A DNA stretch of 64,000 nucleotides from Escherichia phage vB_EcoM_VR20. This document shows positions 19,613 through 43,475 of the stretch, in pieces. Each line of letters opens with the position of its first letter. Position 1 is the stretch's first letter. Under the pieces are notes generated by a model. That model was not told the DNA's origin and did not search any database. It worked only from the letters and a program-made list of their open reading frames with translations. Position numbers and translations under genes: made by a program. Location of the stretch: the sequence record NC_028894.1; one strand, given 5' to 3'.

Positions 19613-19629
19613 AATTTGCTCCTTTACTG

Positions 19630-19641
19630 TATTTATAAATA
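19630..19641. promoter_or_regulatory. divergent late promoters in the palindrome TATTTATAAATA (26 on minus, 51 on plus)
   Basis: TATAAATA reads on both strands. Confidence 0.6.
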
Positions 19642-19665
19642 TCAATAAAGATAAAAGGGGATTCT

Positions 19666-23794: not shown

Positions 23795-23802
23795 GGAATA
23801 AC

Positions 23803-24897
23803 ATGAAAGTAAAAGAACTCGATATTGATATTGCGGGTTTATTTAACGGAGGTTCTAAGACCTCCGCTGGGCAGTCAAAAGCTGCCCAGACTCAAGCTAC
23901 TATTGTGGCGCAATATCCAGCAGAACGAGCTTCCGGTAATGATTCTTCAGATGATATGCGAGTTAATGACCTTTATAAAAATGGTCTGTTATTCACGGCA
24001 TACAATTTCAGTTCAAGAACATCTCCGGAATTACGCTCAGACAGGTCAAGCCAATTGACTTCATTAAAGAAAGTTTCCAATGGTGCTTCATTTAACCCGG
24101 TTAAAAGTTTAACATCTTTTGCTAAATCGAAATTAACCGGTGCTGGGTCAACAGGTAAAAGTTTTGATTCAAACGCTGTCGCAAATATCCTGTTGCCTCG
24201 TTCGAAGTCTGATGTAGAATCCGTGTCGCATCGATTCAACGATGTTGGTGAGTCTCTTATTACGAAAGGCGGTGGCTCAGCTACTGGTATTCTTAGTAAC
24301 ATCGCATCGACCGCAGTTTTTGGTGCACTCGAATCAGTTACAAACGGTGTAATGGCCGACCATGGTGAACAGATTTACACAACGGCAAGAAGCATGTATG
24401 CTGGTCCAGATAACCGGACAAAAGTTTACACATGGGAAATGACTCCACGTTCGGCCCAGGACTTAATCCAGATAGTGAAGATATACGAGATTTTTAACTA
24501 TTACTCCTATGGGGAAACCGGTAAAAGTTCGTTTGCTTCCGAGCTGAAAGAAAAAATCGATACATGGTATAAATCCACCTTCAAAAAAGAAGCAATCGAT
24601 AACTTTGACGGCAAGTTGCTCGGTGAAGAGATAACAAGCTTCCTAACGAACGTTCTGGTGGTCTCTAACCCTACTATCTGGTATATCCGCAACTTCGGCG
24701 ATACAAGCTCGTACGATGGTCGTGGGGAGCTATTTGGGCCGTGTCAGATTCAGAGCATAAGATTCGATAAATCTCCGGATGGTCATTTCGGTGGATTAGC
24801 TATTGCTCCTAACCTGCCATCGACTTTTGTACTTGAAATCACTTTCCGTGAAATCATTACGCTTAACCGTGGCTCATTATATGCGGAAGGTTTCTAA
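23803..24897 (+). CDS. 48: baseplate tail tube cap
   Basis: 364 aa, same as T4 gp48. Confidence 0.85.
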   Translation: MKVKELDIDIAGLFNGGSKTSAGQSKAAQTQATIVAQYPAERASGNDSSDDMRVNDLYKNGLLFTAYNFSSRTSPELRSDRSSQLTSLKKVSNGASFNPVKSLTSFAKSKLTGAGSTGKSFDSNAVANILLPRSKSDVESVSHRFNDVGESLITKGGGSATGILSNIASTAVFGALESVTNGVMADHGEQIYTTARSMYAGPDNRTKVYTWEMTPRSAQDLIQIVKIYEIFNYYSYGETGKSSFASELKEKIDTWYKSTFKKEAIDNFDGKLLGEEITSFLTNVLVVSNPTIWYIRNFGDTSSYDGRGELFGPCQIQSIRFDKSPDGHFGGLAIAPNLPSTFVLEITFREIITLNRGSLYAEGF

Positions 24898-25856
24898 TGT
24901 TTACTTTACAAGAATTTCAAACACAAGCGATTAATATCGACTTGCAGAGGAATAACCTTTTTAGTGTGGTCTTCGCGACCGCACCTTCCTCTAAATCTCA
25001 GAATCTTCTGGACCAGTTTGGTGGCGCATTATTCAGTAACCTTCCTGTTAACTCAGATTGGTTCGGATTAACACAAGGTGACTTAACTCAGGGGATAACA
25101 ACTCTTGTTACTGCCGGGACACAAAAGCTTATTCGCAAATCAGGGATAAGCAAATATCTTATTGGGGCAATGAGTAACCGTGTTGTGCAATCATTATTAG
25201 GTGAATTTGAGGTTGGTACTTACCTGCTTGATTTCTTTAATATGGCTTATCCAACGGCTGGTCTATTAGTTCACTCTGTTAAGCTTCCGGATAACACATT
25301 GAACTACGAAATGGACCTTAACCATAATGCGCCAAATATCAAGATAACAGGGAGAGAATATTCTCCGTTGGTATTGAGCTTTAGAATGGATTCAGAGGCA
25401 GGGAACTTCAGAGCATTTAACGATTGGGTTAACTCTGTACAGGACCCAGTTACCCAGCTAAGGGCTTTGCCTGAAGACGTTGAAGCTGATATTCAGGTTA
25501 ACCTTCATTCGCGTAATGGGTTACCGCATACGGTTGTTATGTTAACTGGTTGTGTTCCTGTAAGTGTATCAGCGCCTGAATTGAGTTATGAAGGTGATAA
25601 TCAGATAGCTACATTTGATGTGACTTTTGCTTATCGCGTTATGTCAACTGGTGCGGTGGGAAGAGCTGCAGCATTGGAATGGTTGGAAGATAAGGTTATT
25701 AAAGGTGTATCTGGTATTAGTTCAGATAACAACTTGAACGCAGAAGTTGCCAAATTGAGTCGCTTGTCTGGTGCTCAATCTGGATTAACAAGTCTATACA
25801 ATACGTTTACTGGTTCTGGGAGAACAGTCTCTGGTGGAAGTCAACGTATATTATAA
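24897..25856 (+). CDS. 54: baseplate tail tube initiator
   Basis: 319 aa; synteny. Confidence 0.85.
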   Translation: MFTLQEFQTQAINIDLQRNNLFSVVFATAPSSKSQNLLDQFGGALFSNLPVNSDWFGLTQGDLTQGITTLVTAGTQKLIRKSGISKYLIGAMSNRVVQSLLGEFEVGTYLLDFFNMAYPTAGLLVHSVKLPDNTLNYEMDLNHNAPNIKITGREYSPLVLSFRMDSEAGNFRAFNDWVNSVQDPVTQLRALPEDVEADIQVNLHSRNGLPHTVVMLTGCVPVSVSAPELSYEGDNQIATFDVTFAYRVMSTGAVGRAAALEWLEDKVIKGVSGISSDNNLNAEVAKLSRLSGAQSGLTSLYNTFTGSGRTVSGGSQRIL

Positions 25857-25862
25857 AAAGAA

Positions 25863-25886
25863 AGGGACCCGAAGGTCCCTTTTTTA
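25863..25886. terminator. terminator hairpin GGGACC-CGAA-GGTCCC plus T-run
   Basis: Between convergent gene 54 and the alt.-1-like ORF. Confidence 0.7.
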
Positions 25887-26174
25887 TTTGCGGAATGAAA
25901 TGAAACCTGCTGCAGTCATGACAGCTTCTTTCTTAACAAATACTGTAATTGCAATTGGTGCTTCAGATTCAAGTTGTCCAGTTACTACACCATTAAAAAT
26001 ATTTTCTGTTTGTTCAGAATTTACAAAGTTTTCAACAGGGCGAAGGTCAAACTTCTTATCTTCGCCAAACACGCGCCGCAGTTCATTACCCACTGCGCTG
26101 TCAAACTCTTCTGAAGCCGGGATAACATTCTCAACTACCAGTTCCTGACCATTAAAGCGAAAAGATGATTTCAT
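25884..26174 (-). CDS. hypothetical early protein, 96 aa (alt.-1 position)
   Basis: Start MKSSFRF preceded by GAGGAA and an early promoter. Confidence 0.55.
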   Translation of the reverse strand: MKSSFRFNGQELVVENVIPASEEFDSAVGNELRRVFGEDKKFDLRPVENFVNSEQTENIFNGVVTGQLESEAPIAITVFVKKEAVMTAAGFISFRK

Positions 26175-26214
26175 TTTGTTTTCCTCATGTGCAATTGATA
26201 TGAACATTGTATCG

Positions 26215-26234
26215 CACTTCCTTGTGCTTGTAAA
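26215..26234 (-). promoter_or_regulatory. early promoter GTTTAC-N18-TACAAT
   Basis: Minus-strand motif upstream of the alt.-1-like ORF. Confidence 0.5.
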
Positions 26235-26237
26235 CCC

Positions 26238-28298
26238 CTACGAAAGGAATTTAGGAGGAATAGCTTCCAAATTAATACAACTAGCAAGAATACCAAGACC
26301 TTGATTGACTTTCTTCGTTACCCCAGAGGATGCAAACGATGCAAAGTCAACAGATTCTACTGGCTCTTCTGTTTCCTCGCCCTGATAAACGACAAGCTCA
26401 CCAGTTTCCATCAACACATCACCATCATAGATAACTGCATTTTCATCCAGTTGGTCCGTAGTCTGGATATCAGCTTCCAGCATTTTGACGTTCGCGTTTC
26501 CTTGATACGAAGCATCAGTAATTTTGGTAATCTTAACTACAGTCCCACGAGGAAGAATAACTTCCTGCTCGGACGGGTTGCTTGACAATTCACCAGGAAC
26601 AATTACGTTAATTAAGTCCGCCCCAGAAATTTTCCAACCAACATGCATCATTACGTGGTCGCGGCGTGCATCCGGCATATCTGGTAAAACAATTTCGTCA
26701 TCAGCCTGGAAAGATGTCCCATCACGATAGTCCTGATGAACTGCAGCCATAGCAACGTTCGCCACCCAGCCACCAAAGATAATCGGTTTAAACGACGTTG
26801 ATACATAGTTCCTGAAATAAAATAATTTAGATTTCTTAATTTTATCAAATGTAGGAACGTTTAAATATTGACCACGCCAAAGAGTTGTATTAGGCGGCAA
26901 CTTATGTCCAATTTCAAAGGCCGAATCCAATTCCTTAATTGTTTCGACAACTCTGTCTAGATTTAGGAATTCAGCTTCTTCTTCATAATATTTGCCCATC
27001 AAATAATTATTAATATCGGCATAGTTTGCTCCACAATAATCTGCAATTGCTTCTCGCTGGCCATAATGGAAACGGTTGTCAGTATACCCTGCTGTGAAAT
27101 TAAGAGTATTTTCTGATGCTTCTTCGGCAAAGTCTTTAACTGCAACACGAATGGCGCTTGTGTATTCTTTTTCCCAGAGCGAGGCTGCATAAGTGGCTGC
27201 ATCCAGGTTAGGAGGAGCATCATTCATTTTTCTTTCGATAAATGCGGCTTTGCGAAGGTTAAGAATCTCTGCACATGATTCGGCAAAAATCTGCATCTGC
27301 TTCATACTGCCAACAGGAGCACGTTTAAGTTCACGATGCATACGGTTAAAAATTGGGTCAGAGTCTTCAATACGAATTTCTTCTTTCCAAACACCATTTG
27401 CTCGCATAGCCGCATCTGCTGCGCGCATACGAGCCATAGTATTCGTTTCGGAAGGTCGAACAAAAATTTCCAGTTCTTCATAATCATCGATAAGTTCTGC
27501 CGTAGCCGGTCGACTAAACTTAGCAGCTTCTGCATCAATTTCGTCCCAGCCATCGGGCACGGAATCACTTGGAGCATACTGGGCTTGTGCAATAGCTCGG
27601 CGACTGATTTTAGTTTTCTGGGCAACAGCAGCATCGGTCTTTTTGTTTGCTGCGTCAATCAGAACTTCGGCTGCGATTTCTTGTTTGGAGACTTGTGCGC
27701 CTGTATCTTTATTAGTGAATACATCGCCAACTTTAGTTTCAACTTTTTGATATTTCTCAGGGACTGGTGGCATACCATCAACCGAAAGCAGGTCAACACC
27801 CTTTTTGTACATAATTACATAAGCGTTCTTTTTACCGAGGCCAGAAGCATTCGGAAGAACATGATAACGCCCGCTGGTTTTCATTTGAATCAGTCGATTC
27901 ATAATACGAATAACAGCTTGGTCTTGCCCTTTCATTTTTTTGGATGGGAAACGGAACAAGACTACATCAGGTTTGCCTAGTTTAATGCTTTCCCAGACTG
28001 TAACAAAAATCAGGTTAATCGCATCAAGAGGTTTTTCACCTAGACCACCCTTCAGAGGAACAGCATGGCCATGTGAAGTCCCGGAGAGCAGGAATACCTC
28101 GGCAATTGCATCGCCGCGTTTATATTGTTTAACTGTTTCTTTGCCCGTGAATTGCATCAAACGGGCCATAAGAGAATTGGTCCCAGGAACACCGAATTGC
28201 CAAACCTGTGGGACCTTGTATTTCGGATTCATATTAATGACAGGATAACCGAAGGCTTCGATATATTTGTCAAAGAGTTCATTTAATTGTTCAGACAT
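26238..28298 (-). CDS. alt: ADP-ribosyltransferase Alt
   Basis: 686 aa against 682 in T4; synteny between 54 and 30. Confidence 0.85.
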   Translation of the reverse strand: MSEQLNELFDKYIEAFGYPVINMNPKYKVPQVWQFGVPGTNSLMARLMQFTGKETVKQYKRGDAIAEVFLLSGTSHGHAVPLKGGLGEKPLDAINLIFVTVWESIKLGKPDVVLFRFPSKKMKGQDQAVIRIMNRLIQMKTSGRYHVLPNASGLGKKNAYVIMYKKGVDLLSVDGMPPVPEKYQKVETKVGDVFTNKDTGAQVSKQEIAAEVLIDAANKKTDAAVAQKTKISRRAIAQAQYAPSDSVPDGWDEIDAEAAKFSRPATAELIDDYEELEIFVRPSETNTMARMRAADAAMRANGVWKEEIRIEDSDPIFNRMHRELKRAPVGSMKQMQIFAESCAEILNLRKAAFIERKMNDAPPNLDAATYAASLWEKEYTSAIRVAVKDFAEEASENTLNFTAGYTDNRFHYGQREAIADYCGANYADINNYLMGKYYEEEAEFLNLDRVVETIKELDSAFEIGHKLPPNTTLWRGQYLNVPTFDKIKKSKLFYFRNYVSTSFKPIIFGGWVANVAMAAVHQDYRDGTSFQADDEIVLPDMPDARRDHVMMHVGWKISGADLINVIVPGELSSNPSEQEVILPRGTVVKITKITDASYQGNANVKMLEADIQTTDQLDENAVIYDGDVLMETGELVVYQGEETEEPVESVDFASFASSGVTKKVNQGLGILASCINLEAIPPKFLS

Positions 28299-28337
28299 AA
28301 TAGGTTCCTTATAAAATATGATGTATTTATACTAAAA

Positions 28338-28356
28338 AAGGGCCGAAGCCCTTTTG
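28338..28356 (-). terminator. terminator hairpin GGGCC-GAAG-CCC
   Basis: Downstream of the ligase gene on the minus strand. Confidence 0.6.
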
Positions 28357-29889
28357 TTATTTTAATCCAGTCTTTGACCAGTCGCCAAATACATCTTCGA
28401 ATGTGTCTGCATGGTCTTTATCGAAACGGAACCCTTTGATAATCGGCAGGAACAATGCAACCGTATTATCTTTACGAGTCTCGGAAGTCAACCAACCATT
28501 ACATTCACAGTCGGCAATCATTCCAACCAATTCACCTTTACGGGCTTTAACCATCAAGGCTTCACGGTCCATTTCATGACGCTCCTCAATCGGAATAGTA
28601 ACCCATTTTTTGGTTTTCTTATCTTTAACTTGAGTTGTGTCTTTAAAACCAGAACCACAGTTATTTGTAATCTTACCACAAGAAGAACGAAGCACAACAC
28701 CACCAATCTTATTCGGGTCTTTATCGTGCTCGTAATATCCAATGATTTCCATTGCAATGTCAATTACTTCTTTGAACTTGTACAAGTTCTTTGAGCGCTT
28801 GTTTTCCCAAATCGATGCCATGTTCTTAAGGATAATACCTTCAAGACCTTCATCCACATATTTCTTATAGATAACCTTCGCTTCATCGAGATTGTTAACA
28901 ACATGGTTTTCAATCAGAATCATGCGGTCAAAACCATGCAGCACCACGTTATCTGCAATCATCTTTTCCAGAACAGCAAAACGCACATCGTATTTCAACG
29001 GATTGAGAATCTTAACATCAGAATAGACTTCAATCAGTGGAACATAATCCCAAACCTGGAATTTCATACAAGCAGCTTCTGTTGCCGAAATAGTTCCTTT
29101 CAATGATTTGTTTGCCAGACCATTTGAAAAGGTTCTTGATTCCGCAGTTTCTTGTGCAGGGGCAATCTCATTTGAATCGTCAAAAAGGAAGCCCAAACCG
29201 TCATTCTGGGGAGCTACTTTCTGTTCATGGTATACTAACTCACCGTCAATCAAAACGCCCTCAGGATGTCTCTCACGCGCTTCACGAGTAGCTTCAATCA
29301 ATTCCTTTTTAAGGAGGTCAAGCTTGAGGTATTCGTTGCCAGCTCGGGATAACAATCGAACATCATCCAACTCATCGCCACGAACTTCTGCAAAACACCG
29401 AGCGCCGTCGGCTTTCAATTGTGCAAAGGCCGGGAACTTAATGTTCTTGGCAATACCGGCTTCATCATAGGAAGAAGCGAGCATCTGCGGTTGTTCTGGA
29501 ATTAAACCTTTCCAAACCTTATTTGCAATTGATACGGATGCCCCGCATTCCAGGTCACGCATCATCACACGGCGCAGGACTTCAACATCTGCTTTTTTAC
29601 CATCGGCAATATAGCCAGATAATTCCTCGATTGCAGCATTACCTGTTAATTTACGAGAGGCCAATGTGAATTCGATAAAGTCAAGCATATCATCGATATT
29701 CAGCATACCAAAGCTTTGAGTCGTTGTTCCAGGTTTTGGCCATTTCTTGATATAGAACTGGATGCCTTTGGAATATGTCAAACGATACACACGTTTGAGG
29801 GTTTCATTGTCAGAATACGATTCCAGAATAGCTTGTTTCTCTTTAGTAGAATCGGTTGCAGCAATTTCATTTAAAATATCTAAAATCAT
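28357..29889 (-). CDS. 30: ATP-dependent DNA ligase
   Basis: KADGARC adenylation motif; T4 ligase-like throughout; start at second ATG for better GGTGA spacing. Confidence 0.95.
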   Translation of the reverse strand: MILDILNEIAATDSTKEKQAILESYSDNETLKRVYRLTYSKGIQFYIKKWPKPGTTTQSFGMLNIDDMLDFIEFTLASRKLTGNAAIEELSGYIADGKKADVEVLRRVMMRDLECGASVSIANKVWKGLIPEQPQMLASSYDEAGIAKNIKFPAFAQLKADGARCFAEVRGDELDDVRLLSRAGNEYLKLDLLKKELIEATREARERHPEGVLIDGELVYHEQKVAPQNDGLGFLFDDSNEIAPAQETAESRTFSNGLANKSLKGTISATEAACMKFQVWDYVPLIEVYSDVKILNPLKYDVRFAVLEKMIADNVVLHGFDRMILIENHVVNNLDEAKVIYKKYVDEGLEGIILKNMASIWENKRSKNLYKFKEVIDIAMEIIGYYEHDKDPNKIGGVVLRSSCGKITNNCGSGFKDTTQVKDKKTKKWVTIPIEERHEMDREALMVKARKGELVGMIADCECNGWLTSETRKDNTVALFLPIIKGFRFDKDHADTFEDVFGDWSKTGLK

Positions 29890-29898
29890 AATCACCTC

Positions 29899-30180
29899 TT
29901 AGTCGTTGGCTCTATTATATGCCACATCTTCCAAAAGCAAATCCAGACGCTTATGATAAGAGAACACAAATCTCATTCGCCCATCTGGTTTAAACTTAGA
30001 CATAAAGTGAACATAGATAAACCCTTGCTCAACGCATTCACGCCAAACCGGATGGTCTTTGGCTGGGTTAATATCAAACGAGTAATCATGATTCACATGA
30101 CGAATAAACTGATTAACATGGCCATAATCCATGGTAGTAGTAGGACCGTAATCAGAAATAGTATGAACGACAAACATCAA
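29899..30180 (-). CDS. hypothetical protein, 93 aa (30.1 position)
   Basis: ORF and synteny. Confidence 0.6.
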   Translation of the reverse strand: MMFVVHTISDYGPTTTMDYGHVNQFIRHVNHDYSFDINPAKDHPVWRECVEQGFIYVHFMSKFKPDGRMRFVFSYHKRLDLLLEDVAYNRAND

Positions 30181-31001
30181 TTACCCCCTTGGCCACCGGT
30201 CGGTTGATTGTACCAATATTCAATGCCAGTACCTACGCGTGGACCATATTGATATGGATATGCTGGATTATATCCAGGGGTCCATGGTTGACCTGGTTGC
30301 CAGCCTTGCTGCATTTGTTGTTGAAGACGTCGAGTTTCACGAAACAGTTCGTCCAGTTTACGGAGTTCATCAGGGGTGAATTCTGGTTTGACTGGTTCAT
30401 CTTTGTGTTTCAGTTTAAGCTGCCCAGCTACATCGTCCCAATTAAAAACTTTGGAAGCTGTTTTAGGAATAGCATTACGTTCGCCACGGGCCATCCAATA
30501 AACCGGGACTTCAAGGATTTCACTCGCATGGTCGCAATGGTGTGCAAGGTCATCAATATAACAAACGACATTATATTTGGTCTTCGCTTTCTGGAATAAC
30601 TCTTCTTTAGAGGCTGTATGGCCGCACATCATCACTTCTTTAAATGCACCAGGGAACAAAGCATTCAGGTTGAATTGACGATTCAGACGGGCGTCAATGG
30701 AATCACCCAGAGCCGTAACAGCCACAAAATCATATTGCTCTTTGAGGTTATTAATAACCCTTAACGCATCTGCGTAAGGAGACAAATAACGAATAAAATC
30801 TGAACAGTTATATTTCTCAATCAACTGTGCTCCCAACTCTTCATCACAATTGAACAGTTTACCAGGGGTCACAAATTTTTCATCCTGAATCATCTTAAGG
30901 ATATGTTCCAGGGGTAAATTATATTTTTGGGCGAAATAAGGCAAGCCTGACTGCCATGACAAACATACGCCATCAATATCTGTTAAAATAACGGGTTTCA
31001 T
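30177..31001 (-). CDS. HAD-like hydrolase with Q/P/G/Y-rich C-terminal tail (30.2 position)
   Basis: N-terminal LTDIDGV (DxDG) motif; low-complexity last ~50 aa. Confidence 0.65.
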   Translation of the reverse strand: MKPVILTDIDGVCLSWQSGLPYFAQKYNLPLEHILKMIQDEKFVTPGKLFNCDEELGAQLIEKYNCSDFIRYLSPYADALRVINNLKEQYDFVAVTALGDSIDARLNRQFNLNALFPGAFKEVMMCGHTASKEELFQKAKTKYNVVCYIDDLAHHCDHASEILEVPVYWMARGERNAIPKTASKVFNWDDVAGQLKLKHKDEPVKPEFTPDELRKLDELFRETRRLQQQMQQGWQPGQPWTPGYNPAYPYQYGPRVGTGIEYWYNQPTGGQGGN

Positions 31002-31465
31002 AATGCATCTCTCAATTGGTTAAGTATGTCAATAAATTCTTGTTCAGTCAATATTGTATCATGAACAGTAAGGTGGCTCGCCATCGAATGCTTTAAAACT
31101 TTGCCCTTTGTAGCTTGTAATGCGTCGCGGAATCCTTTGTTTTGGAGCGCTGCTTCAAAATATGCATTTGTATACAACTCTTTCCATGATGTAGAGTATC
31201 TTGAAAAGGGAATTCCAAGCCAGAAAAGCGTCCCACGGTCCGCAGCTCTAGCATAAGCTCTTCCACTTTGCTGGGCGGCCAATCCGGACATCCCAAATAT
31301 ACGTTTTTGTTGTTCACAATTTCTCACCTTACACCCTTGCAGGAAGCCTTCAAGACCTCCAAACTGGATGCCCTCCATAACAAAAGGCCATTTAGCAAAG
31401 TTACTTAATGCGCATGATGGCCATGGGAAATTGCTTCTGATTTCTAACTCAGACATCTTTGACAC
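30998..31465 (-). CDS. NADAR/YbiA-like domain protein (30.3 position)
   Basis: LSNFAKWPF...GLEGFLQGCK pattern resembles the YbiA/DUF1768 family; identification by motif only. Confidence 0.6.
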   Translation of the reverse strand: MSKMSELEIRSNFPWPSCALSNFAKWPFVMEGIQFGGLEGFLQGCKVRNCEQQKRIFGMSGLAAQQSGRAYARAADRGTLFWLGIPFSRYSTSWKELYTNAYFEAALQNKGFRDALQATKGKVLKHSMASHLTVHDTILTEQEFIDILNQLRDAL

Positions 31466-31661
31466 TTACTACATCAACGTTTGCCCAATGACCATAACCA
31501 GGTAGACGGTCTTTAATAGATAATCCACCGTCAGATTTCAGCATTTTAATTGTTTTAGTATATGGTTCAATATTTCGGGCCCATGGACTCACGTCAGTTA
31601 CGCGATAAGTAACTTCAACCATTTCTGTGCCCAAAATTTTCTGAATCAGTTTCTTAAACAT
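31449..31661 (-). CDS. hypothetical protein, 70 aa
   Basis: ORF in the 30.x cluster. Confidence 0.55.
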   Translation of the reverse strand: MFKKLIQKILGTEMVEVTYRVTDVSPWARNIEPYTKTIKMLKSDGGLSIKDRLPGYGHWANVDVVSVKDV

Positions 31662-31662
31662 A

Positions 31663-31857
31663 TTATCCTCGCCTTAAACATTTGATTACAGACAGTTCAC
31701 CGTCCATGCGAACGTCTTCAGTTCCATCAACCCACAGGACTACGTAGGCTTCTTTAATTTGTGTATTACCCAATTTAAAAGCAGGCAAAACCTTAGAAAT
31801 CATTCCAGGAATACCTACGCCTTTTAACTGGACAGTTTGTGATAAGAATAGTTGCAT
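31663..31857 (-). CDS. hypothetical protein, 64 aa
   Basis: ORF in the 30.x cluster. Confidence 0.5.
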   Translation of the reverse strand: MQLFLSQTVQLKGVGIPGMISKVLPAFKLGNTQIKEAYVVLWVDGTEDVRMDGELSVIKCLRRG

Positions 31858-32144
31858 TAAAACCTCATCTGAAACCCGTGTGATTTAACATTGCCACCAT
31901 AGATGTCAGACGTATTGACTTCACGAGCAGCACTTGGGTCGATATTGATATCATGGTTGAGCTTAGTGATTGCCAGGGTATCACGACCATTAACAGTACG
32001 AAATTCTACCGGACATACAACATCGGCATAAGCCTTAATAGATTCACGAGTAGGTTGTTTGTCGGCAGGAACGTCTTTACCTGCTTTAGAGAAAACAACT
32101 TCACAGAAATTTTTACGAGTATCAAAATAAGTGGTCATAAACAT
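31857..32144 (-). CDS. hypothetical protein, 95 aa
   Basis: Start MFMTTYF preceded by GAGGAAAATATT; upstream track residues overlap a terminator hairpin. Confidence 0.6.
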   Translation of the reverse strand: MFMTTYFDTRKNFCEVVFSKAGKDVPADKQPTRESIKAYADVVCPVEFRTVNGRDTLAITKLNHDINIDPSAAREVNTSDIYGGNVKSHGFQMRF

Positions 32145-32156
32145 AATATTTTCCTC

Positions 32157-32174
32157 AAGGGGCTTTCGCCCCAT
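32157..32174 (-). terminator. hairpin GGGGC-GAAA-GCCCC
   Basis: Between two minus-strand early ORFs. Confidence 0.5.
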
Positions 32175-32180
32175 TTAAGA

Positions 32181-32546
32181 TTAGATATCAAATTCATTAA
32201 GAACTACATCAAAGATTGCTTCCAGGTGTTCAGGTTTTGCTTTGTTACCCAGGATATGACGAATCCAAGTTTTAACCAACAGCTTGCGATTAACACCATT
32301 CCAGCAAGGATGAGTACCTAAATCACGCTCGCGGAAATCATCATCTAAAGCAATTTTAAAGGTTGAACCAGTCATAGTGATTGAAAGAGTGATACCATTT
32401 TCAAATCGCATATAAACGTAGTTAGGAGTCATGTACTGTTCAATTTCGCACACTGAACCATTTTTATGTTTCCACAGGCAAATAACTTCAGAAGAACCTG
32501 GGATGCAGTTAGAAACATATTTGCGTTCAAAGTTGATGTAGTTCAT
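32181..32546 (-). CDS. hypothetical protein, 121 aa
   Basis: ORF preceded by an early promoter/leader cassette and GGAG. Confidence 0.65.
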   Translation of the reverse strand: MNYINFERKYVSNCIPGSSEVICLWKHKNGSVCEIEQYMTPNYVYMRFENGITLSITMTGSTFKIALDDDFRERDLGTHPCWNGVNRKLLVKTWIRHILGNKAKPEHLEAIFDVVLNEFDI

Positions 32547-32584
32547 TTTATTCTCCAGTTGTTTTCATTTGTTGGTACAGGTCT

Positions 32585-32613
32585 ATAATATCATAACCTG
32601 TACCAAAGTAAAC
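32585..32613 (-). promoter_or_regulatory. early promoter with -10 inside the palindrome GGTACAGGT...ACCTGTACC
   Basis: GTTTAC then TATTAT about 17 nt downstream; 9-bp inverted repeat around the -10. Confidence 0.5.
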
Positions 32614-32617
32614 TGTT

Positions 32618-32986
32618 TTATGCGACTTTAATCCAATTATCTAAATTTAATTCACCCTTAGCTTTCATTTTTTCAATCAAATCATCAGCAGTGGTGCGAC
32701 CATTTTGATACCATGTAACATCTTCAGAATAACCAGTTTCTTCATCTTCATAGGTCTTACAACGAATCTTACCAAGAATCAAAGTTTTCAGTTCGTAGGT
32801 ATCACCAGTAAAAAAGTTTGTTACCATAATTTTCCAGGAGAAGTCATCAGAAGGACCTTCTGGAGTCATGCAAGAAACGAATTCAAATTGTTCTTTATAC
32901 AAGTGCCATTGCATTTCTTTAGTTTCAATGGCTTTGTAGCCGTCGTGGTCTTTACCTTTGATGTATGAGTTAAGATTGATTTTCAT
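32618..32986 (-). CDS. hypothetical protein, 122 aa
   Basis: ORF preceded by the same leader as 48405..48644. Confidence 0.65.
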   Translation of the reverse strand: MKINLNSYIKGKDHDGYKAIETKEMQWHLYKEQFEFVSCMTPEGPSDDFSWKIMVTNFFTGDTYELKTLILGKIRCKTYEDEETGYSEDVTWYQNGRTTADDLIEKMKAKGELNLDNWIKVA

Positions 32987-33026
32987 TTTATTCTCCAGTG
33001 TTTTATTGTGTAACTCAGTATGGAAT

Positions 33027-33057
33027 CATTATGCACTGGACCAACCCTGTTGTAAAC
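33027..33057 (-). promoter_or_regulatory. early promoter GTTTAC-N18-CATAAT with leader CCATACTGAGTTAC
   Basis: Near-identical cassette at 48685..48715. Confidence 0.55.
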
Positions 33058-33075
33058 CTTTTATGGAAATAAAAA

Positions 33076-33096
33076 AGGGACTCCGAAGAGTCCCTG
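33076..33096 (-). terminator. terminator hairpin AGGGACTC-TTCG-GAGTCCCT plus T-run
   Basis: Directly after the 53-aa ORF stop. Confidence 0.65.
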
Positions 33097-33099
33097 AAC

Positions 33100-33261
33100 T
33101 TATGCTTTCGGCTTACCAAAGCAAGCTGCATCGGCACGCAATACCGCACGAGCACGAGCCTGAAGTTTATCAGTTACCTGATTGATTCGCTTGTTGGACG
33201 CACGCTTGTAACCAGCGCGTTTGGAGGAGCCATCAACAACTTTAACTTCTTTCTTAGCCAT
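33100..33261 (-). CDS. hypothetical small basic protein, 53 aa
   Basis: Hand-translated MAKKEVKVVDGSSKRAGYKRASNKR...; AAAGAG upstream; terminator right after the stop. Confidence 0.45.
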   Translation of the reverse strand: MAKKEVKVVDGSSKRAGYKRASNKRINQVTDKLQARARAVLRADAACFGKPKA

Positions 33262-33558
33262 ATTAAATTCTCTTTAAAATAGAATGCAGGACTTATTGAC
33301 ATTGCCTGCGCAAGCCCTCGAAGGGAACATTAGGTTTCGGATATTTAACGACAGGATAACCATAAACCTCGTCATCATACCAACCACGACTTAGACAGAT
33401 AACCTTTTTCTGACGCGTGATAGTACAAAATACATTCAAGAGGTACACCGTAAAACTGCTGGGGTCTTAAAACTATAATGATTCACAAATCATTAATCAG
33501 GCAGTTCGACAGCTCCTCGATTTTCTAGCCGCACTTAAGGTAGCGAATCACCTAAAAC

Positions 33559-33813
33559 TTACTTCAGAGTAACGACAAAATGTCGAACAGCTTTGCGAGC
33601 AGCAGATGCCAGCGGCTTAGCAAATTTCAGTTCATCTTTTGCTTCGAGCACAGCGCGAAGGTCGGTTTGTACCGGGTTAAGATGTTTGAAATACTGCAGA
33701 ATTTCCAGTGCTTCGGCTTCAACATCAATAGATGCGCCGTAGTTTTCGTGACCGTTATTCCATGCAGTGCGTTGCAGTTCAAGAGCGTGTTGTAATTGTT
33801 TGTTTAAAGACAT
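33559..33813 (-). CDS. rIII: lysis inhibition accessory protein rIII
   Basis: 84 aa from MSLNKQLQHALELQ, matching T4 rIII; GAGG upstream. Confidence 0.85.
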   Translation of the reverse strand: MSLNKQLQHALELQRTAWNNGHENYGASIDVEAEALEILQYFKHLNPVQTDLRAVLEAKDELKFAKPLASAARKAVRHFVVTLK

Positions 33814-33970
33814 TTTAGAAGCCTCAATATGAGGTGAATATTTGGTGGACACGTTCTTCTGAATTTCACTTCCTTTCGACAAGTCTCTCAGTTGTAGTCC
33901 ACCGTTTAGGATTCTCCGGGTAACTAACTGGTCCGGCAGCCAATCCATATTATTATTTATAACGCTAATT

Positions 33971-34318
33971 TTACTTATAAAGACAAGGAACAGCTTTATA
34001 ATGACAGGTCACAAATTTCTGCTTAACTTCTTTAGCCTGCTTAAGTCCCAGAGCAACCAGAGGATGTGGAACGTTTGCAATCTTGCCAACCGGAAGAGGA
34101 GTCAAATCGCCTACTTCACAGAAGCCTTCAGGAACATCTGAACCAATCGAAAATACTTCACACATCTCGGGAATTTCACCCTGATGAAGTTTTCCGATAA
34201 CGATACCTGATGCCGTAGTTTCTTCATCACCAGCTTGCTTTGGCTCAGAAACCAAAATAATATATTCACCTACTGCTTTAATTGGTAATTCCATATTTAA
34301 TCCATGTTGTTTGGTCAT
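33971..34318 (-). CDS. 31: GroES-like co-chaperonin for capsid folding
   Basis: C-terminal half nearly identical to T4 gp31; exact start uncertain. Confidence 0.9.
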
Positions 34319-34349
34319 GTATTAATAATAACACGCGTTGTTTGAAGCA

Positions 34350-34649
34350 TTAAAGGACGAGCAGAGTCTCGGTCTGCAAACCATTCACAGAAATCAATTT
34401 ATTGAAACAGAATGAACGCCATTCATTAAGCTTGGTATCAAATACCCGGATATAGCTAACTGGTTCTTTATGAGCTTCTGGACCAGGGGCCTGGATTTCT
34501 TTATACGGCAGCAGGTCCAGGTCGCGAGTGCAAGTCATACGACGGATGCTACCATCTGCTTTTTCAAACAGAACTTCGTGAAAACCAACAGACAAAATAG
34601 TCTTGACTTTTTCACGGAGACGAATTGTTTCTTGTTCAGTTAAAATCAT
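34350..34649 (-). CDS. hypothetical protein, 99 aa (31.1 position)
   Basis: ORF and synteny. Confidence 0.6.
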   Translation of the reverse strand: MILTEQETIRLREKVKTILSVGFHEVLFEKADGSIRRMTCTRDLDLLPYKEIQAPGPEAHKEPVSYIRVFDTKLNEWRSFCFNKLISVNGLQTETLLVL

Positions 34650-34651
34650 AA

Positions 34652-34885
34652 TTATTCCAAAACAGTTTTAATGGTTGTTGCATTACGCTCTTTTAGAGCT
34701 CTTAATAGGCTATGGCAATTTTCAAGAATAGGCACCGTTTTATAGTTCATTTCGGCGCGAGCCCACTCGGATTTATAGTACGATTTCCAACGAGAGAAAA
34801 AGTACTTTTTATATTCTACTGAATAGGCTACCAGGTTTTCACCTTTTGAGTTCAGACCTGAAAACTTAACTAGACGAAATTTCAT
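34652..34885 (-). CDS. hypothetical protein, 77 aa (31.2 position)
   Basis: ORF and synteny. Confidence 0.6.
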   Translation of the reverse strand: MKFRLVKFSGLNSKGENLVAYSVEYKKYFFSRWKSYYKSEWARAEMNYKTVPILENCHSLLRALKERNATTIKTVLE

Positions 34886-35466
34886 TATTCACCACAAAAT
34901 TCGTTAATGTTTTCCCAGTTCAATTTGTCTAAACTACGCTTAGGCACATTGAACACCTCAATTCCTGCATTCTTCAGGATATCATCCCAACCAGGAATAT
35001 TCTTATCATACGTTTCACAGTAAACCAATTTCTTGATTCCTGATTGAGAAATTGCCTTTGCACAATCAGGACAAGGAGAAAGCGTCACATACATAGTAGC
35101 GCCTTCAATTGACGAACCCATTCTGGCTGCGAACAGAATCGCATTAAGCTCGGCATGAATTTCGTTGTTCTTTGACCATGCAGAATGTTCTTCGCGATGG
35201 GCTTTCGCCAATACAAAACGGTCAACCTTACTGAATCTCACACATTCTGGCTTATGACCAGGGACGAGAACGGGTTTAGGTTTATTCAGTAACCAACCTT
35301 GCTCTTCCGCATGCTCGCAACAGTTGACCCCACCTGCAGGGGAACCATTATACCCTGTAGAAATAATGCGACCATTCTTTTCAATAACAGCTCCCACTTT
35401 CCAGGAGCAACATTTTGATTCTTGAGATACAAGGTATGCGATTTGCAGAACAGTAGTTGGTTTCAT
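34885..35466 (-). CDS. cd: dCMP deaminase
   Basis: 193 aa; zinc-binding HAE and PCxxC motifs. Confidence 0.95.
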   Translation of the reverse strand: MKPTTVLQIAYLVSQESKCCSWKVGAVIEKNGRIISTGYNGSPAGGVNCCEHAEEQGWLLNKPKPVLVPGHKPECVRFSKVDRFVLAKAHREEHSAWSKNNEIHAELNAILFAARMGSSIEGATMYVTLSPCPDCAKAISQSGIKKLVYCETYDKNIPGWDDILKNAGIEVFNVPKRSLDKLNWENINEFCGE

Positions 35467-35802
35467 TTACATCACCACGAGATAATTGGTTTTAATAGTT
35501 TCAACACGATATAATTCATGTCGCAATTTAGTAATGCTCTTAACATGTGTTGTAATTATACTATCACCATCGCTGAAGCGTTTTTTCTTATCGTCAAAAA
35601 TCACCCCAAACATTCGCTCACCAATTTCTACAGGAGCTTCTGTGATAACAACCGCATCATAATTACTTGGGTGAATACTTTTAAACAGAGCATCATTCGC
35701 AAGCGTTACTTTGATAAATGCAGTTGTTTCTGGGTCCAACTTACGATGGTCACCTAAATCATTTTTAAGTGATTCTTTGAAAATATCCATTAAATTCATC
35801 AT
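35467..35802 (-). CDS. hypothetical protein, 111 aa
   Basis: ORF in the cd.x region. Confidence 0.6.
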   Translation of the reverse strand: MMNLMDIFKESLKNDLGDHRKLDPETTAFIKVTLANDALFKSIHPSNYDAVVITEAPVEIGERMFGVIFDDKKKRFSDGDSIITTHVKSITKLRHELYRVETIKTNYLVVM

Positions 35803-36044
35803 TGAATATACACTCGCTGCGCTTCAACCAGACCATCAGAACCCAATTTCAGTTGGGTCAACTGGTCACCACCTTTTAGAGTAATTTTCGGATTAATGAC
35901 AATCATAAAACTGCGTGCAGATTCCTGAATAACTTGCAAAGTCGCAGCAGGGAATCGCTGCGATACGCGGTTAATCATCTCTTGAGCAAATGCCTTCACT
36001 TTTTCGTGAAACTCTTCAACAGTAATTGGGGTTTCGCTAAGCAT
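35799..36044 (-). CDS. hypothetical protein, 81 aa
   Basis: ORF in the cd.x region. Confidence 0.6.
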   Translation of the reverse strand: MLSETPITVEEFHEKVKAFAQEMINRVSQRFPAATLQVIQESARSFMIVINPKITLKGGDQLTQLKLGSDGLVEAQRVYIQ

Positions 36045-39564: not shown

Positions 39565-39914
39565 TTGGTGAGCTCCTGGAAGTCCTGGGCGAACTTATCA
39601 AAAGACTGATTAATCTGTTTTTCAACTAATTTAGGCTTCGCTGCCACAACCTTAGTACGTTTTGCATCTGCGCGAAGTTTATCATTTTCCTTCTGCAGGT
39701 GTTCAACATATTCCTGGCGCTGTTGGTCAAGGAGATTAATTTGATTAACCTGGTCTTTTATTGATTGCAGATTTTTCGCATTATCTTCTGCGACTTTGGT
39801 GACTTCCGCCACCGCTGTCTTGAGATTATCCACTTTTGCTTTTAGATAGAAACCACTACCAGCAGTTACTACCAGGGCGAGCATAAGCCCTGCGGTGAGA
39901 TTACTTATTTGCAT
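39561..39914 (-). CDS. inner-membrane spanin (pseT.3 position)
   Basis: N-terminal transmembrane segment then coiled-coil-like sequence; 117 aa. Confidence 0.75.
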   Translation of the reverse strand: MQISNLTAGLMLALVVTAGSGFYLKAKVDNLKTAVAEVTKVAEDNAKNLQSIKDQVNQINLLDQQRQEYVEHLQKENDKLRADAKRTKVVAAKPKLVEKQINQSFDKFAQDFQELTK

Positions 39915-40408
39915 AACTTGATGATTACCTCAACAATATCATCCTGGGATAAACCATTCAGGAGGATGTGATTTGTACTGTCAGATGCTGAAATGCGGAA
40001 CTGATTACCAACTTCATCCGCCATATCATCCTGGGTTAATACTGGGTGTTTAATTCCCAGGCGGTGCTGAAGTGTCAGGGGTTCAACCACAACATAACAA
40101 ACACATCCATTGATATGCACATTAGGTTGGGTCTGATTGATGAACACTTCTGCATCATATTTAACCAAATGGTTCTTTAAGAAGTCAACCATTTCAGGAA
40201 CAGATTCATGCAGCGCTTCTTTCCGCTCTTCTGATTTTTTATCACGATATTCTTTTTGTTTCGCCTTCAACTTTTTATTGGAGGCGAGTTTTTTCCGCAA
40301 GTCAGTCATGAGACCAATTTTCTTGGTCCCTTTATAGACATAAATTCCGTCATGACGGTCACCATATTCATTGACAATCATTTCATTTGAAATCAGTTGC
40401 ATATCCAT
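39905..40408 (-). CDS. alc: Alc, transcription terminator on cytosine-containing DNA
   Basis: 167 aa from MDMQLISNEM, the T4 Alc length and position; track ORF extends upstream from a GTG. Confidence 0.85.
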   Translation of the reverse strand: MDMQLISNEMIVNEYGDRHDGIYVYKGTKKIGLMTDLRKKLASNKKLKAKQKEYRDKKSEERKEALHESVPEMVDFLKNHLVKYDAEVFINQTQPNVHINGCVCYVVVEPLTLQHRLGIKHPVLTQDDMADEVGNQFRISASDSTNHILLNGLSQDDIVEVIIKLCK

Positions 40409-40421
40409 AATATTTTCCTCA

Positions 40422-40655
40422 TTAGTAGCGGTTGTAACCCCGGGGGCCAAAAGAGTTGGCACCCAGACGTTCATCTTTCTTTTTGGCTCTTGCTCTAAAC
40501 CCAGAATCACCTGTTTGAGCTTTCAGTTCTTTTAACAATTTGGCCTTCAGGTCAGTAATGAAACCAATCCGGCGGTCTCCCTTGTAGACATAGATTCCAT
40601 CATTTCTGTCGCCATATGCCTTTGTAACTCTGTCATTTGAAATTAAGTTTAACAT
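40422..40655 (-). CDS. Alc N-terminal-domain paralog, 77 aa
   Basis: MLNLISNDRVTKAYGDRNDGIYVYKGDRRIGFITDLKAKL is clearly homologous to the Alc N-terminus; GAGGA and early promoter upstream. Confidence 0.6.
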   Translation of the reverse strand: MLNLISNDRVTKAYGDRNDGIYVYKGDRRIGFITDLKAKLLKELKAQTGDSGFRARAKKKDERLGANSFGPRGYNRY

Positions 40656-40685
40656 GTTTTGGTCCTCATCAGTAGTTGATGGAAC

Positions 40686-40716
40686 CATTATGTATAGAAA
40701 GAAGGGGCTTGTACAC
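40686..40716 (-). promoter_or_regulatory. early promoter GTGTAC-N18-CATAAT overlapping the rnlA terminator
   Basis: Minus strand GTGTACAAGCCCC...CATAATGGTTCC. Confidence 0.5.
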
Positions 40717-40725
40717 CCCTTTTTT
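40700..40725 (-). terminator. terminator hairpin AAGGGG-loop-CCCCTT plus T-run
   Basis: Directly downstream of rnlA. Confidence 0.6.
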
Positions 40726-40726
40726 A

Positions 40727-41863
40727 TTATTCAGGCAGGATTACATCCGCTTGGTAGTCCACCGGGATGTAAAGTTTATGATTTTTAAGGAAAACATTAT
40801 TGATTTGAGCGATGGTTTGCTCTGTTTCCTGGGGACGTTGATAGGTGTTCATTAATACGGAGAACAAACCCGGATATGGTTTACACAACTCTTGACCTTT
40901 AATCGCAAACTCGCGTCGGTCTTTTCCCGCCAACTGTTTCTGGGCATCAAGCAACAGTCCCAGGGTATTGGACAGATAATCCAGATGTGCAATGGTAAAG
41001 GCATTAACTTTTTCACGAGCATAATCATCGCCAGTAAACATGGCAATAACATCATCTGCACCGCCTGCAACAACAACTTCAAACAGACGCTGGTTATTGT
41101 TAACAGAATCCTTTGTATGGTGTAAAGCACAATACCATTCTGTCTTAACTTTAAATTTGCGACCATCGACCAGCTCATAGACAAAGCCTTCAATCTCTTT
41201 CATATCACGGACGTTTTCAATTGTAGTCGGGTCATATGCTTCAACCAGGAATGGACGAAGCGCGGCATCTTTAAACAAATCCTGATAAGGGATATATTCG
41301 CCAGTTTCATTATGGCGAACGTTCAGTAAAATCAGGTCACGTTCCTGGTAAGGCAAAACAATGCGGTTGGTTGGTGCAACATATTCCATATTGCATGTAT
41401 AACCAGCTTCAGTAATTTCAGTTACACGCTCACGGAAAGCTATACGGTGTTCTTGTTTGAATACCTGCAGTGCTTCTGCTGCCTGGGAGCTTTTGATTGA
41501 CCCTTTGGATTTAAAAGCAATATTGGTCTGGTCCATATAAGTGGAGACAAGAGAGCCATCAGCCTTGGTCATGACCAGCGCAACTTCATCCATATTGATA
41601 TCCATGGTCAACGGATTTTCACCCAGATTAAAGAATTTTTCCATAGGACGAGCAGCAATGCGAACTGGACCATCGTCATCCATTTCAAACATAATACCAC
41701 GGCACTCCAGTGCGTCATCAAGAAGCCAATCACTATAGGAAGCATAGTTATAGCTAAAGATGCGGAACTTAGTTTCAAATGGAGAAACAAAATCCGTATA
41801 GAAAAACTTACCTTTATCGGATTCGGCGCAAAGCTTCATTAAGTTATCATATAATTCAATCAT
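40727..41863 (-). CDS. rnlA: RNA ligase 1
   Basis: 378 aa; KADG adenylation motif; synteny. Confidence 0.95.
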   Translation of the reverse strand: MIELYDNLMKLCAESDKGKFFYTDFVSPFETKFRIFSYNYASYSDWLLDDALECRGIMFEMDDDGPVRIAARPMEKFFNLGENPLTMDINMDEVALVMTKADGSLVSTYMDQTNIAFKSKGSIKSSQAAEALQVFKQEHRIAFRERVTEITEAGYTCNMEYVAPTNRIVLPYQERDLILLNVRHNETGEYIPYQDLFKDAALRPFLVEAYDPTTIENVRDMKEIEGFVYELVDGRKFKVKTEWYCALHHTKDSVNNNQRLFEVVVAGGADDVIAMFTGDDYAREKVNAFTIAHLDYLSNTLGLLLDAQKQLAGKDRREFAIKGQELCKPYPGLFSVLMNTYQRPQETEQTIAQINNVFLKNHKLYIPVDYQADVILPE

Positions 41864-42276
41864 TTCTTCACCTTATGTTGGTAATTCCACGGGGGATTAA
41901 AAAGCTTGATGAACATCGGCTCTTCCAGAGACATCGTTTCGACTGACATTGTGCCAAGTTCATTGGTCATTGACAGATTGAAACATTGTCGTGCATAGAA
42001 TACCACCTTTTTGCCTTCTTGTAAAGCTTCATGTATCATCCGGGATTTGTTTGAATCACTCGTCTGGTCGATTCTGTTAATCGCAGTCCGGTAATAGTTG
42101 ATACGCTTCTTAAGGTTGTTCGTCTTACCAATATACACTAGTTCATCATCAACTGAAATAGCATAGATAACATTTTTCTTGTTTGCGAGAGTAAGGATAG
42201 GGATTTTACCATCGACTAACTCTAACTCCGCGTATTTTATAAAACTGTATTCATCAGCGATTTGTTTCATGGGCAA
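41860..42276 (-). CDS. denA: endonuclease II (GIY-YIG type)
   Basis: 138 aa; position between nrdB and rnlA. Confidence 0.9.
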   Translation of the reverse strand: MPMKQIADEYSFIKYAELELVDGKIPILTLANKKNVIYAISVDDELVYIGKTNNLKKRINYYRTAINRIDQTSDSNKSRMIHEALQEGKKVVFYARQCFNLSMTNELGTMSVETMSLEEPMFIKLFNPPWNYQHKVKK

Positions 42277-42296: not shown

Positions 42297-43475
42297 TTAT
42301 AGATATTTACGGAAACCAGCAAGAACGTTCTCATCGACGTCATTGTCAATCTGGGCTACCAGGTAAGCGGACAACTCAACTTCTTGTGGTGCTGATTGCA
42401 CATTATCAGAGTTAAGATATTCGCGAATCCATGGAATCGGGTGCTTAGTAGATTCTAACACGATTTCACACGGGAGTCCACATTGCTTCATACGAGAAAC
42501 CGTCAGGTAATCGATGAACCGGTTAAGAATCTCGACGCTCAGCCCAGGGAGTCCACCATCTTTAAACAGATGCACGGCCCATTCTTTTTCCTGACGATTA
42601 ACTTCCATGAAAATGGCTGCGGCTTCTGCTTCGCATTCGTGAGCGATTTTAACCCATTCGTCACCGTCAACACCAGTCTGCAGTTGACGAAGAATATATT
42701 GGGTCCCCTTAAGGTGGAGCTGTTCATCACGGGCGATGAACTTCATTATCTTCGCATTGCCTTCCATGATTTCCATGTTCTTATGGAAGTTGAAAGTACA
42801 AGCAAAAGATACATAAAAACGAATGGCTTCCAGGGCGTTAATAACATGCAGGCAGAGATAAAGAGACTTCATTAATGCTCGTTTGGCGATAGCTTCTTGT
42901 TTGATAGCACGTTCCAAACGTTCGTCCGCTTCGGGAGTTTCTTTGGCCAGTTCAACAAAAGCAATCTGGTTTTGCCATTGACGAGTTTTATTCAGAACAT
43001 CATCATAGTAATGACCGATGGATTCAGCTCGCTTCATGATTGCATCATCCAACAGGATTTCGTCGAATACCTTCGCCGGGTCCGTGTAGAGATTTCGCAT
43101 GATGTGCGTATAAGAACGAGAGTGAATTGTCTCACTGAATGTCCAGGTCTGAATCCATGTATCAAGACTCGGGTCAGAAACTAATGCGGCTAATGCTGCA
43201 GCTGGAGCACGACCCTGGATACTATCCAGAAGTGATTGGTATTTCAGGTTGTTGGTAAAAATATTTTGTTGATGTTCAGGAAGCTTATTAAATTGGGCTC
43301 CATCCATCATCAGGTTGACTTCCTCGGGTCGCCAGAAAAAACTCAACTGCTTTTCTGTTAATTCTTCGAAAACTTTATGACGCTGGATATCATAACGGGC
43401 GATGCCCAATCCTGAACCGAAGAACATTGGCTCGGCTAAAACATCCACCGGAGTGGTATTAAAAACTGTACTCAT
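42297..43475 (-). CDS. nrdB: ribonucleotide reductase small subunit, uninterrupted
   Basis: 392 aa continuous ORF; no intron. Confidence 0.95.
   Translation of the reverse strand: MSTVFNTTPVDVLAEPMFFGSGLGIARYDIQRHKVFEELTEKQLSFFWRPEEVNLMMDGAQFNKLPEHQQNIFTNNLKYQSLLDSIQGRAPAAALAALVSDPSLDTWIQTWTFSETIHSRSYTHIMRNLYTDPAKVFDEILLDDAIMKRAESIGHYYDDVLNKTRQWQNQIAFVELAKETPEADERLERAIKQEAIAKRALMKSLYLCLHVINALEAIRFYVSFACTFNFHKNMEIMEGNAKIMKFIARDEQLHLKGTQYILRQLQTGVDGDEWVKIAHECEAEAAAIFMEVNRQEKEWAVHLFKDGGLPGLSVEILNRFIDYLTVSRMKQCGLPCEIVLESTKHPIPWIREYLNSDNVQSAPQEVELSAYLVAQIDNDVDENVLAGFRKYL

Follow-up and report, generated by a model that had tools for sequence, protein, structure and literature searches.

The alcB locus

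The DNA analyzed here, which we call the window, is a stretch of 64,000 nucleotides from Escherichia phage vB_EcoM_VR20 (NC_028894.1). Its minus strand carries nrdB, denA, rnlA and alc in the order familiar from T-even phages, with pseT.3 and pseT.2 beyond alc on the same strand. Between rnlA and alc lies a further gene of 77 codons, alcB, whose translation is identical to that of the reading frame in the original prediction; the ribosome-binding site it had been assigned is also there. Table 1 gives the coordinates. The alcB stop codon TAA (40424..40422) is followed by a single T and then by the Shine-Dalgarno GAGGA of alc (40420..40416); the alc ATG follows at 40408. We also considered an 88-aa version of the protein beginning at the ATG at 40688 and rejected it: that codon falls partly within the promoter-like -10 hexamer, no Shine-Dalgarno precedes it, and in L016, one of the uncultured relatives described below, it is not in frame.

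Table 1. Genes and features of the alcB locus in the window
Feature	Coordinates	Strand	Basis or remarks
nrdB	43475..42297	-	T-even order
denA	42276..41860	-	T-even order
rnlA	41863..40727	-	directly upstream neighbor of alcB
Terminator-like hairpin past the rnlA stop	40702..40721	-	scan; 7-bp stem with 4 GC pairs
Promoter-like site TGTACA-17-CATAAT, sigma-70/T4-early type	40687..40715	-	consensus scan
alcB Shine-Dalgarno GAGGA	40663..40667	-	7 nt before the ATG; a second copy precedes alc
alcB coding sequence, truncated Alc paralog	40422..40655	-	77 aa plus TAA stop, ORF translation
AlcB residues 1-48, Alc-type N-terminal module	40512..40655	-	AlphaFold2 model and hhalign
AlcB residues 49-77, basic Gly/Pro-containing tail	40425..40511	-	predicted disordered, pLDDT about 50
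Tail motif G-A-N-S-F-G-P, residues 65-71	40443..40463	-	followed by N75 and a C-terminal aromatic residue
Duplication unit, copy 1 (31-nt leader and about 72 codons)	40440..40686	-	MAFFT; blastn core
Duplication unit, copy 2 (alc leader and alc codons 1 to about 72)	40193..40439	-	MAFFT, blastn, direct reading
alc leader within copy 2	40439..40409	-	also encodes AlcB G-Y-N-R-Y-stop and the alc Shine-Dalgarno
alc (alcA), parent gene and operon partner	39905..40408	-	167 aa; Pfam ALC 166 bits, full length

The gene is already known as a sequence feature. The GenBank record of Shigella phage SP18 (2010) names it alcb and notes a similarity to the N-terminal part of Alc from phage JS98, a host transcription inhibitor, the full gene being alca, and in vB_EcoM_VR7 it is ORF243c (ADR32618.1), described as "similar to T4 Alc". 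The SP18 protein (ADO19581.1) and ORF243c are the same gene in the same place between rnlA and alc, and differ from the AlcB of the window by a few amino-acid polymorphisms only. PHROGs v4 holds a dedicated family of 77 positions, phrog_17715, on which AlcB residues 1-77 align to positions 1-77 with E = 4.7e-54. The existing annotations, then, call the gene Alc-related, and not, as the original prediction had allowed for, something widely annotated and unrelated to Alc.

Other labels occur as well. In Escherichia phage EAWsc9 (our L003, at 1746-1979; XLZ23795.1), where alcB likewise sits between rnlA and alc, the protein is a "PRC domain-containing protein"; Pfam does not reproduce this domain and at E-values up to 1 returns ALC only. 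In Escherichia phage 212, where the product names are apparently one gene off, AlcB is called "RNA ligase and tail fiber protein attachment catalyst". The literature searched yielded no functional study of alcB, and no structure of Alc has been solved. What is new here is the pattern of selection, the tail motif, the leader-derived C-terminus, the distribution among uncultured phages, and a parallel in phage G28.

Paralogy with Alc

AlcB had been taken for a paralog of the N-terminal domain of Alc that stands alone upstream of alc, and sequence and profile comparisons bear this out. BLASTP finds 50% identity over 64 aa between AlcB and the 167-aa Alc encoded downstream (E = 3e-17). On AlcB the Pfam model PF17527 (ALC) reaches 37.5 bits, where 25 is the cutoff, and the match takes in positions 3-62 of its 177; phrog_1253 (Alc) matches with E = 3.8e-12 over positions 3-63 of 169. 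When the AlcB orthologs are compared with 21 Alc orthologs, hhalign reports 99.6% probability (E = 1.5e-23), with AlcB residues 2-50 corresponding to Alc residues 3-51. Detectable similarity to Alc ends, by BLASTP and hhalign, at about residue 50-60. AlcB thus scores above the Alc-family sequence threshold and lacks the full Alc architecture of about 165 aa. As far as sequence goes, alcB is clearly a truncated paralog of the Alc N-terminus, and the label "inhibitor of host transcription" reads as a transfer from Alc by partial similarity.

Structure prediction gives a compatible picture of where the truncation falls. The AlphaFold2 model of Alc, built from a 23-sequence alignment (pLDDT 92), has a helix at residues 8-15, a beta-hairpin at 23-33 (strands 23-26 and 29-33), a 47-residue helix at 34-80, and an alpha/beta domain at 87-166. 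The model of AlcB has a helix at 7-14, a beta-hairpin at 22-32, and a helix at 33-48 that corresponds to the first 16 residues of the long helix of Alc. Its pLDDT is above 90 for residues 11-40 and falls to about 50 in the tail that follows the module; the tail is probably disordered. A fold search with the AlcB monomer returned no informative match.

The module has kept part of the Alc signature. Of the residues common with Alc, G15, D19, I21, G31, D35 and L36 are invariant in all AlcB lineages, and G20 is altered in one of five sequences. The first helix has diverged: Alc has NEMxV there (M10 in most sequences, V12 nearly invariant), and AlcB has NDRxx, TDLLV or TERLV.

Promoter and probable translational coupling

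Between rnlA and alc there is a single sigma-70-like site, TGTACA-17-CATAAT (40715..40687), and it lies upstream of alcB. At the equivalent position, after the rnlA stop and before alc, T4 has GTTTAC-17-TATAGT, and the uncultured lineages L014 and L016 have GTTTAC with TAGTAT or CATAAT before alcB. The original prediction gave alcB its own early promoter. A promoter-like site is indeed present, but it is not private to alcB, as it occupies the position of the T4 alc early promoter. Because no more than 13 nt precede alc, alcB and alc form one operon; and because the promoter position matches those in T4, L014 and L016, alcB has gained no promoter, having instead been inserted between the ancestral alc promoter and alc. 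From the promoter consensus and its conservation, we infer that the ancestral alc early promoter serves alcB and then alc.

In every lineage, VR7, L014 and L016 included, the stop codon of alcB touches the Shine-Dalgarno of alc or overlaps with it (TAATGAGGA or TGAGGA), and the distance from that stop to the alc ATG is 13 nt in the window and 10-13 nt across lineages. The arrangement suggests that alcB and alc are probably translationally coupled.

The interval also contains a terminator-like hairpin, AAGGGGTGTACAAGCCCCTT followed by CTTTCT, directly after the rnlA stop, with the promoter-like -35 hexamer in its loop. T4 has no such hairpin at the same position past rnlA.

Origin in a tandem duplication

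A diverged tandem repeat in the DNA, also part of the original prediction, is recovered by blastn as 40643..40548 against 40393..40298, with 72% identity over 97 nt (E = 6.6e-10), in agreement with the rough coordinates of that prediction. The MAFFT alignment delimits a duplicated unit of ~247 nt, made of a 31-nt leader that includes the Shine-Dalgarno and roughly 72 codons. The copy 2 leader (GGTTACAACCGCTACTAATGAGGA...) aligns with the copy 1 leader (GGTTCCATCAACTACTGATGAGGA...). Because these leader copies align, the final five codons of alcB (G-Y-N-R-Y) and the stop can be read as former 5′ untranslated leader, the copied leader of alc being the apparent source of those codons. The rest of the tail would descend, by position, from Alc residues ~50-72. 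The "unrelated basic tail" of the original description does not fit: in terms of position the tail is Alc sequence plus copied leader, and it is also where the constraint on the protein is strongest, as we show below.

How often did this happen? A neighbor-joining tree of the N-module groups the AlcB sequences together and apart from their cognate Alc proteins, at 41% bootstrap over 46 sites. With a bootstrap of only 41%, the case for a single origin of AlcB rests mainly on common position, length and tail motif. The duplication is old relative to the genus.

The course of events follows from the sequence. A segment of ~247 bp, made up of the 5′ leader of alc and some 72 codons behind it, was duplicated in tandem in an ancestor that Gaprivervirus has in common with the uncultured sister lineages. 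The copy lying upstream kept the helix / beta-hairpin / helix module and lost the rest of the long helix together with the C-terminal alpha/beta domain. Its reading frame ran on into the copied leader and ended at the alc Shine-Dalgarno, and the region past residue ~50 became a predicted disordered basic tail with the linear motif GxN[S/T]FGP..N[K/R][F/Y].

The 5′ end of alc itself has a further history. The window at about 40250..40400 (alc codons ~1-50) is a mosaic patch within Gaprivervirus: window-type and SP18-type alc are 81.7% identical over codons 1-42 and 97.6% over the rest, with alcB at ~95%, and synonymous divergence in the N-terminal patch is pS 0.33 vs. 0.10. This suggests an import by recombination confined to the alc 5′ end. 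Recent gene conversion between alcB and alc was considered and rejected; both alc N-terminal alleles of the genus are equally far from alcB (63-65% nucleotide identity), and since neither is closer, there is no sign of such conversion.

Distribution of alcB

The 1.1-kb rnlA-alcB-alc stretch is 94-97.5% identical in DNA to 34 phage records, and those examined among the 34 are Gaprivervirus (SP18, VR7, TH44 and others). Judged by this similarity, the window phage belongs to Gaprivervirus, the SP18/VR7 group. A tblastn search with AlcB against 50,697 phage records gives Alc-like matches in 796, and in only 32 a protein whose identity to AlcB is 90% or more. A collection of 5.8 billion proteins contains just five AlcB clusters, the window AlcB being 97% identical to one of them (P0001). 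No further AlcB cluster came out of an exhaustive HMMER scan of 1.84 billion representatives, and no new AlcB lineage out of scans of IMG/VR and JGI metagenomes.

Three of the five clusters come from uncultured relatives, namely L014/L015, L016 and L017. The Alc proteins of these lineages are 75-77% identical to the window Alc, and the nearest isolates of L014 and L016 are Gaprivervirus, at only ~70-75% DNA identity. In L014, L015 and L016 a gene of 77-78 aa occupies the same slot, in the order rnlA, alcB, alc; in L017 alcB follows an upstream ORF, and the contig stops right behind alcB. The uncultured orthologs have the same length as Gaprivervirus AlcB and are ~47% identical to it. In the next-closest Alc lineages (63% and 60% identity), rnlA is followed directly by alc, with no alcB. 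Across the phage, protein and metagenome searches, alcB is restricted to Gaprivervirus and close uncultured relatives.

In the exhaustive HMMER scan, the long surface repeat proteins P0029, P0031, P0032 and P0034, with up to 12 "..TLTNNGDGTYTYVNERGVSVIIDVP.." copies, score on the AlcB N-module. We do not accept such Bacteroidetes-type repeat proteins as AlcB homologs: their scores sum a weak beta-hairpin resemblance over up to 12 "..NGDGTYTYVNERGVSVIID.." repeats. We judge them to reflect a convergent beta-hairpin pattern (DG-x-Y-x-Y...G....D) amplified by repeat number, and not homology.

Selective constraint and the tail motif

We compared alcB in 14 Gaprivervirus genomes, and it is intact, with 77 codons, in all 14. 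Its pairwise pN/pS is 0.13, next to 0.11 for alc and 0.11 for pseT.3. Against a neutral expectation of about 23% synonymous, the segregating sites in alcB are 17 synonymous vs. 8 replacement (P = 1.7e-6). The signal is distributed unevenly along the gene. Codons 41-77 have 13 synonymous vs. 3 replacement sites (P = 2e-6) and the last fifteen codons, 63-77, have 9 vs. 0 (P = 9e-6); codons 1-40 have 4 vs. 5, which is not significant. As the 14 genomes are closely related and the test counts segregating sites, not independent events, these results are indicative: they point to a living gene under purifying selection, with the tail as its most constrained part. That AlcB is a functional protein derived from Alc we regard as very probable. 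Between the same lineages AlcB is 47% identical and Alc 75-77%, so that AlcB evolves about twice as fast.

The constrained tail carries a motif, R-x-G-x-N-[S/T]-F-G-P-x-G-x-N-[K/R]-[F/Y], which in the window reads RLGANSFGPRGYNRY (residues 63-77). R63, N67, F69, G70, P71 and N75 are invariant across the diverged AlcB lineages, and the C-terminal aromatic residue and a G-F at residues 52-53 are also kept. Each of the motif glycines at position 3 and position 11 has been replaced in a single lineage, and P0028 alone replaces G65 (by Q) and S68 (by T). In a six-frame translation of the window the motif occurs once only. Searches of known families (Pfam, PHROGs, fold search) found no similarity to the tail.

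One sequence departs from this pattern. A Gaprivervirus-like metagenomic contig (k141_9694 of ENA ERZ27275844, our L018, at 1660-1700) has a 35-bp deletion within the alcB tail, which results in a 75-aa frameshifted product overlapping the alc start. The allele is either a natural tail-less form or an assembly error. As the deletion destroys the tail, the tail would not be indispensable, unless the assembly is in error.

Possible functions of AlcB

T4 Alc is a transcription terminator specific for dC-containing DNA, by a mechanism that is unknown, and rpoB mutations in dispensable region I of the beta subunit block its action (PMC2988021). It is plausible, as the original prediction had it, that AlcB modulates or mimics the interaction of Alc with RNA polymerase. 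The N-module would dock onto Alc or onto the host RNA polymerase, in the beta region implicated genetically for T4 Alc; in this way AlcB would tune the Alc-dependent shutoff of host genes' transcription, or extend it, and the tail motif would provide a second contact. Put together, our preferred reading is that alcB is a selected gene that originated in a tandem duplication, resides in the alc operon, and encodes a microprotein modulating Alc or RNA polymerase. We hold this statement tentatively as a whole; it may well be correct in all its parts, and we would not be surprised if one of them failed.

Could the tail be the business end of the protein? AlcB may have neofunctionalized, the N-module serving only as a scaffold for a tail that binds another host or phage target (e.g., nucleic acid or a host factor). 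The pattern of constraint within the genus goes in this direction (13:3 and 9:0 in the tail, and 4:5, not significant, in the N-module), as does the persistence of the tail motif across lineages that are otherwise ~47% identical and the divergence of helix 1 from the Alc consensus NEMxV; the weak constraint on the N-module and the fast evolution of AlcB are likewise compatible with a function that resides chiefly in the tail. On the other hand, six residues of the N-module core have stayed invariant in all AlcB lineages, the tail resembles no known family that we could find, and alcB always adjoins alc on its upstream side and is apparently coupled to it, which usually marks a functional partnership. 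On balance we find neofunctionalization somewhat unlikely, and a function through Alc or RNA polymerase remains our preferred reading.

A more specific idea starts from the DNA of these phages. Gaprivervirus lack dCMP hydroxymethylase, yet they retain alc, denB and dCTPase (PMC8056088; PMC12115623). In SP18 (GQ981382.1, 19000-36000), the uvsX-imm interval, which in T4 is the site of beta-gt and gene 42, holds two small hypothetical ORFs only, and within the same 19000-36000 interval alpha-gt is absent beside gp47. These empty slots are consistent with the published absence of the genes for hydroxymethylcytosine (hmC) and glucosylation. AlcB could then be an anti-Alc or specificity factor, tied to a putative unusual DNA chemistry of the clade, that competes with Alc or re-tunes it. 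Stated as an adaptation, AlcB would let a T-even clade without hmC keep Alc, acting as an Alc-derived decoy or specificity subunit bound to Alc's docking site on RNA polymerase or to Alc itself; it would protect the phage's own DNA, unmodified or modified in a different way, from termination induced by Alc, or else change the choice of DNA that Alc attacks. The restriction of alcB to Gaprivervirus and close uncultured relatives, with the next-closest Alc lineages lacking it, agrees with this idea, as do the retention of alc in a clade without dCMP hydroxymethylase and the empty SP18 slots for gene 42, beta-gt and alpha-gt. But co-occurrence within one clade amounts to a single evolutionary event. 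We rate the anti-Alc factor as improbable, and the adaptive scenario built on it as equally so. In alcB the Alc N-module has been excised, fitted with a strongly selected linear motif and kept in co-expression with Alc, and this only in the T-even clade without the hmC pathway. If the adaptive scenario were true, AlcB would offer a natural way into a problem that is 30 years old, namely how cytosine modification is sensed by Alc.

The peptide might also be irrelevant, with alcB acting as a translated leader that sets the level of Alc through coupling. The position of the alcB stop, on or next to the alc Shine-Dalgarno and 10-13 nt from the ATG in all lineages, is what one would expect of such a leader. 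However, alcB is conserved at the amino-acid level amid abundant synonymous change, the motif is kept where the DNA is only about 70-75% identical, and T4 and most T-even phages express alc with no such ORF, all of which makes this reading very unlikely. Conservation at the amino-acid level also argues against a neutral, functionless duplication remnant in decay, which we find scarcely credible: a fresh duplication of similar kind is tolerated in G28 and L018 has its frameshifting deletion in the tail, but none of the 14 genomes has a broken frame, the synonymous excess stands at P = 1.7e-6, and gene and motif are both retained in lineages at ~47% identity.

Comparison with known systems

AlcB and T4 Alc (PF17527, phrog_1253) have in common the N-module, the early promoter context and the Shine-Dalgarno. 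Unlike T4 Alc, AlcB is without most of the 47-residue helix and without the C-terminal alpha/beta domain (~87-166), and it has a predicted disordered tail with a motif of its own, so that transcription termination cannot be assumed for it. The operons differ too, alc in T4 and most T-even phages being expressed without a leader ORF like alcB. For the question of what the Alc N-terminus binds, AlcB offers a natural, selection-proven fragment.

Microproteins are truncated paralogs that regulate a multidomain parent, with Id and LITTLE ZIPPER as examples among eukaryotic transcription factors, and they bind the parent or its partner via the retained module. AlcB resembles them in being duplicated and truncated, with one module kept, the presumed effector domain missing, and co-expression with the parent, a likeness that is conceptual only.

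The closest parallel to the origin of alcB is found in the Tequatrovirus vB_EcoM-G28 (NC_054916.1), which we traced from a 63-aa match (P0033) and which is one phage in two records (GenBank and RefSeq). Our L020 from this genome contains at 2300-2950 a perfect tandem duplication of 351 bp, with 2300-2599 and 2651-2950 at 100% identity. Included in the duplication are the 3′ end of rnlA, the early promoter and leader of alc, and its codons 1-48; the result is a 63-aa Alc N-fragment and a 33-aa ORF upstream of an intact alc. The product, gp179 (YP_010069786.1), is like alcB in the order rnlA, Alc N-fragment, intact alc, and in arising from a tandem duplication across the alc 5′ end. It is unlike AlcB in that it ends in out-of-frame rnlA sequence and has neither the tail motif nor evidence of selection. 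The G28 event reads as independent of alcB and very recent. Because G28 has acquired an independent, perfect copy, duplication at the alc junction seems to arise readily and to be tolerated, and by analogy G28 is a plausible picture of the first step towards alcB. G28 and alcB would then make a before-and-after pair for the birth of a small gene by tandem duplication, with a leader recruited as coding sequence.
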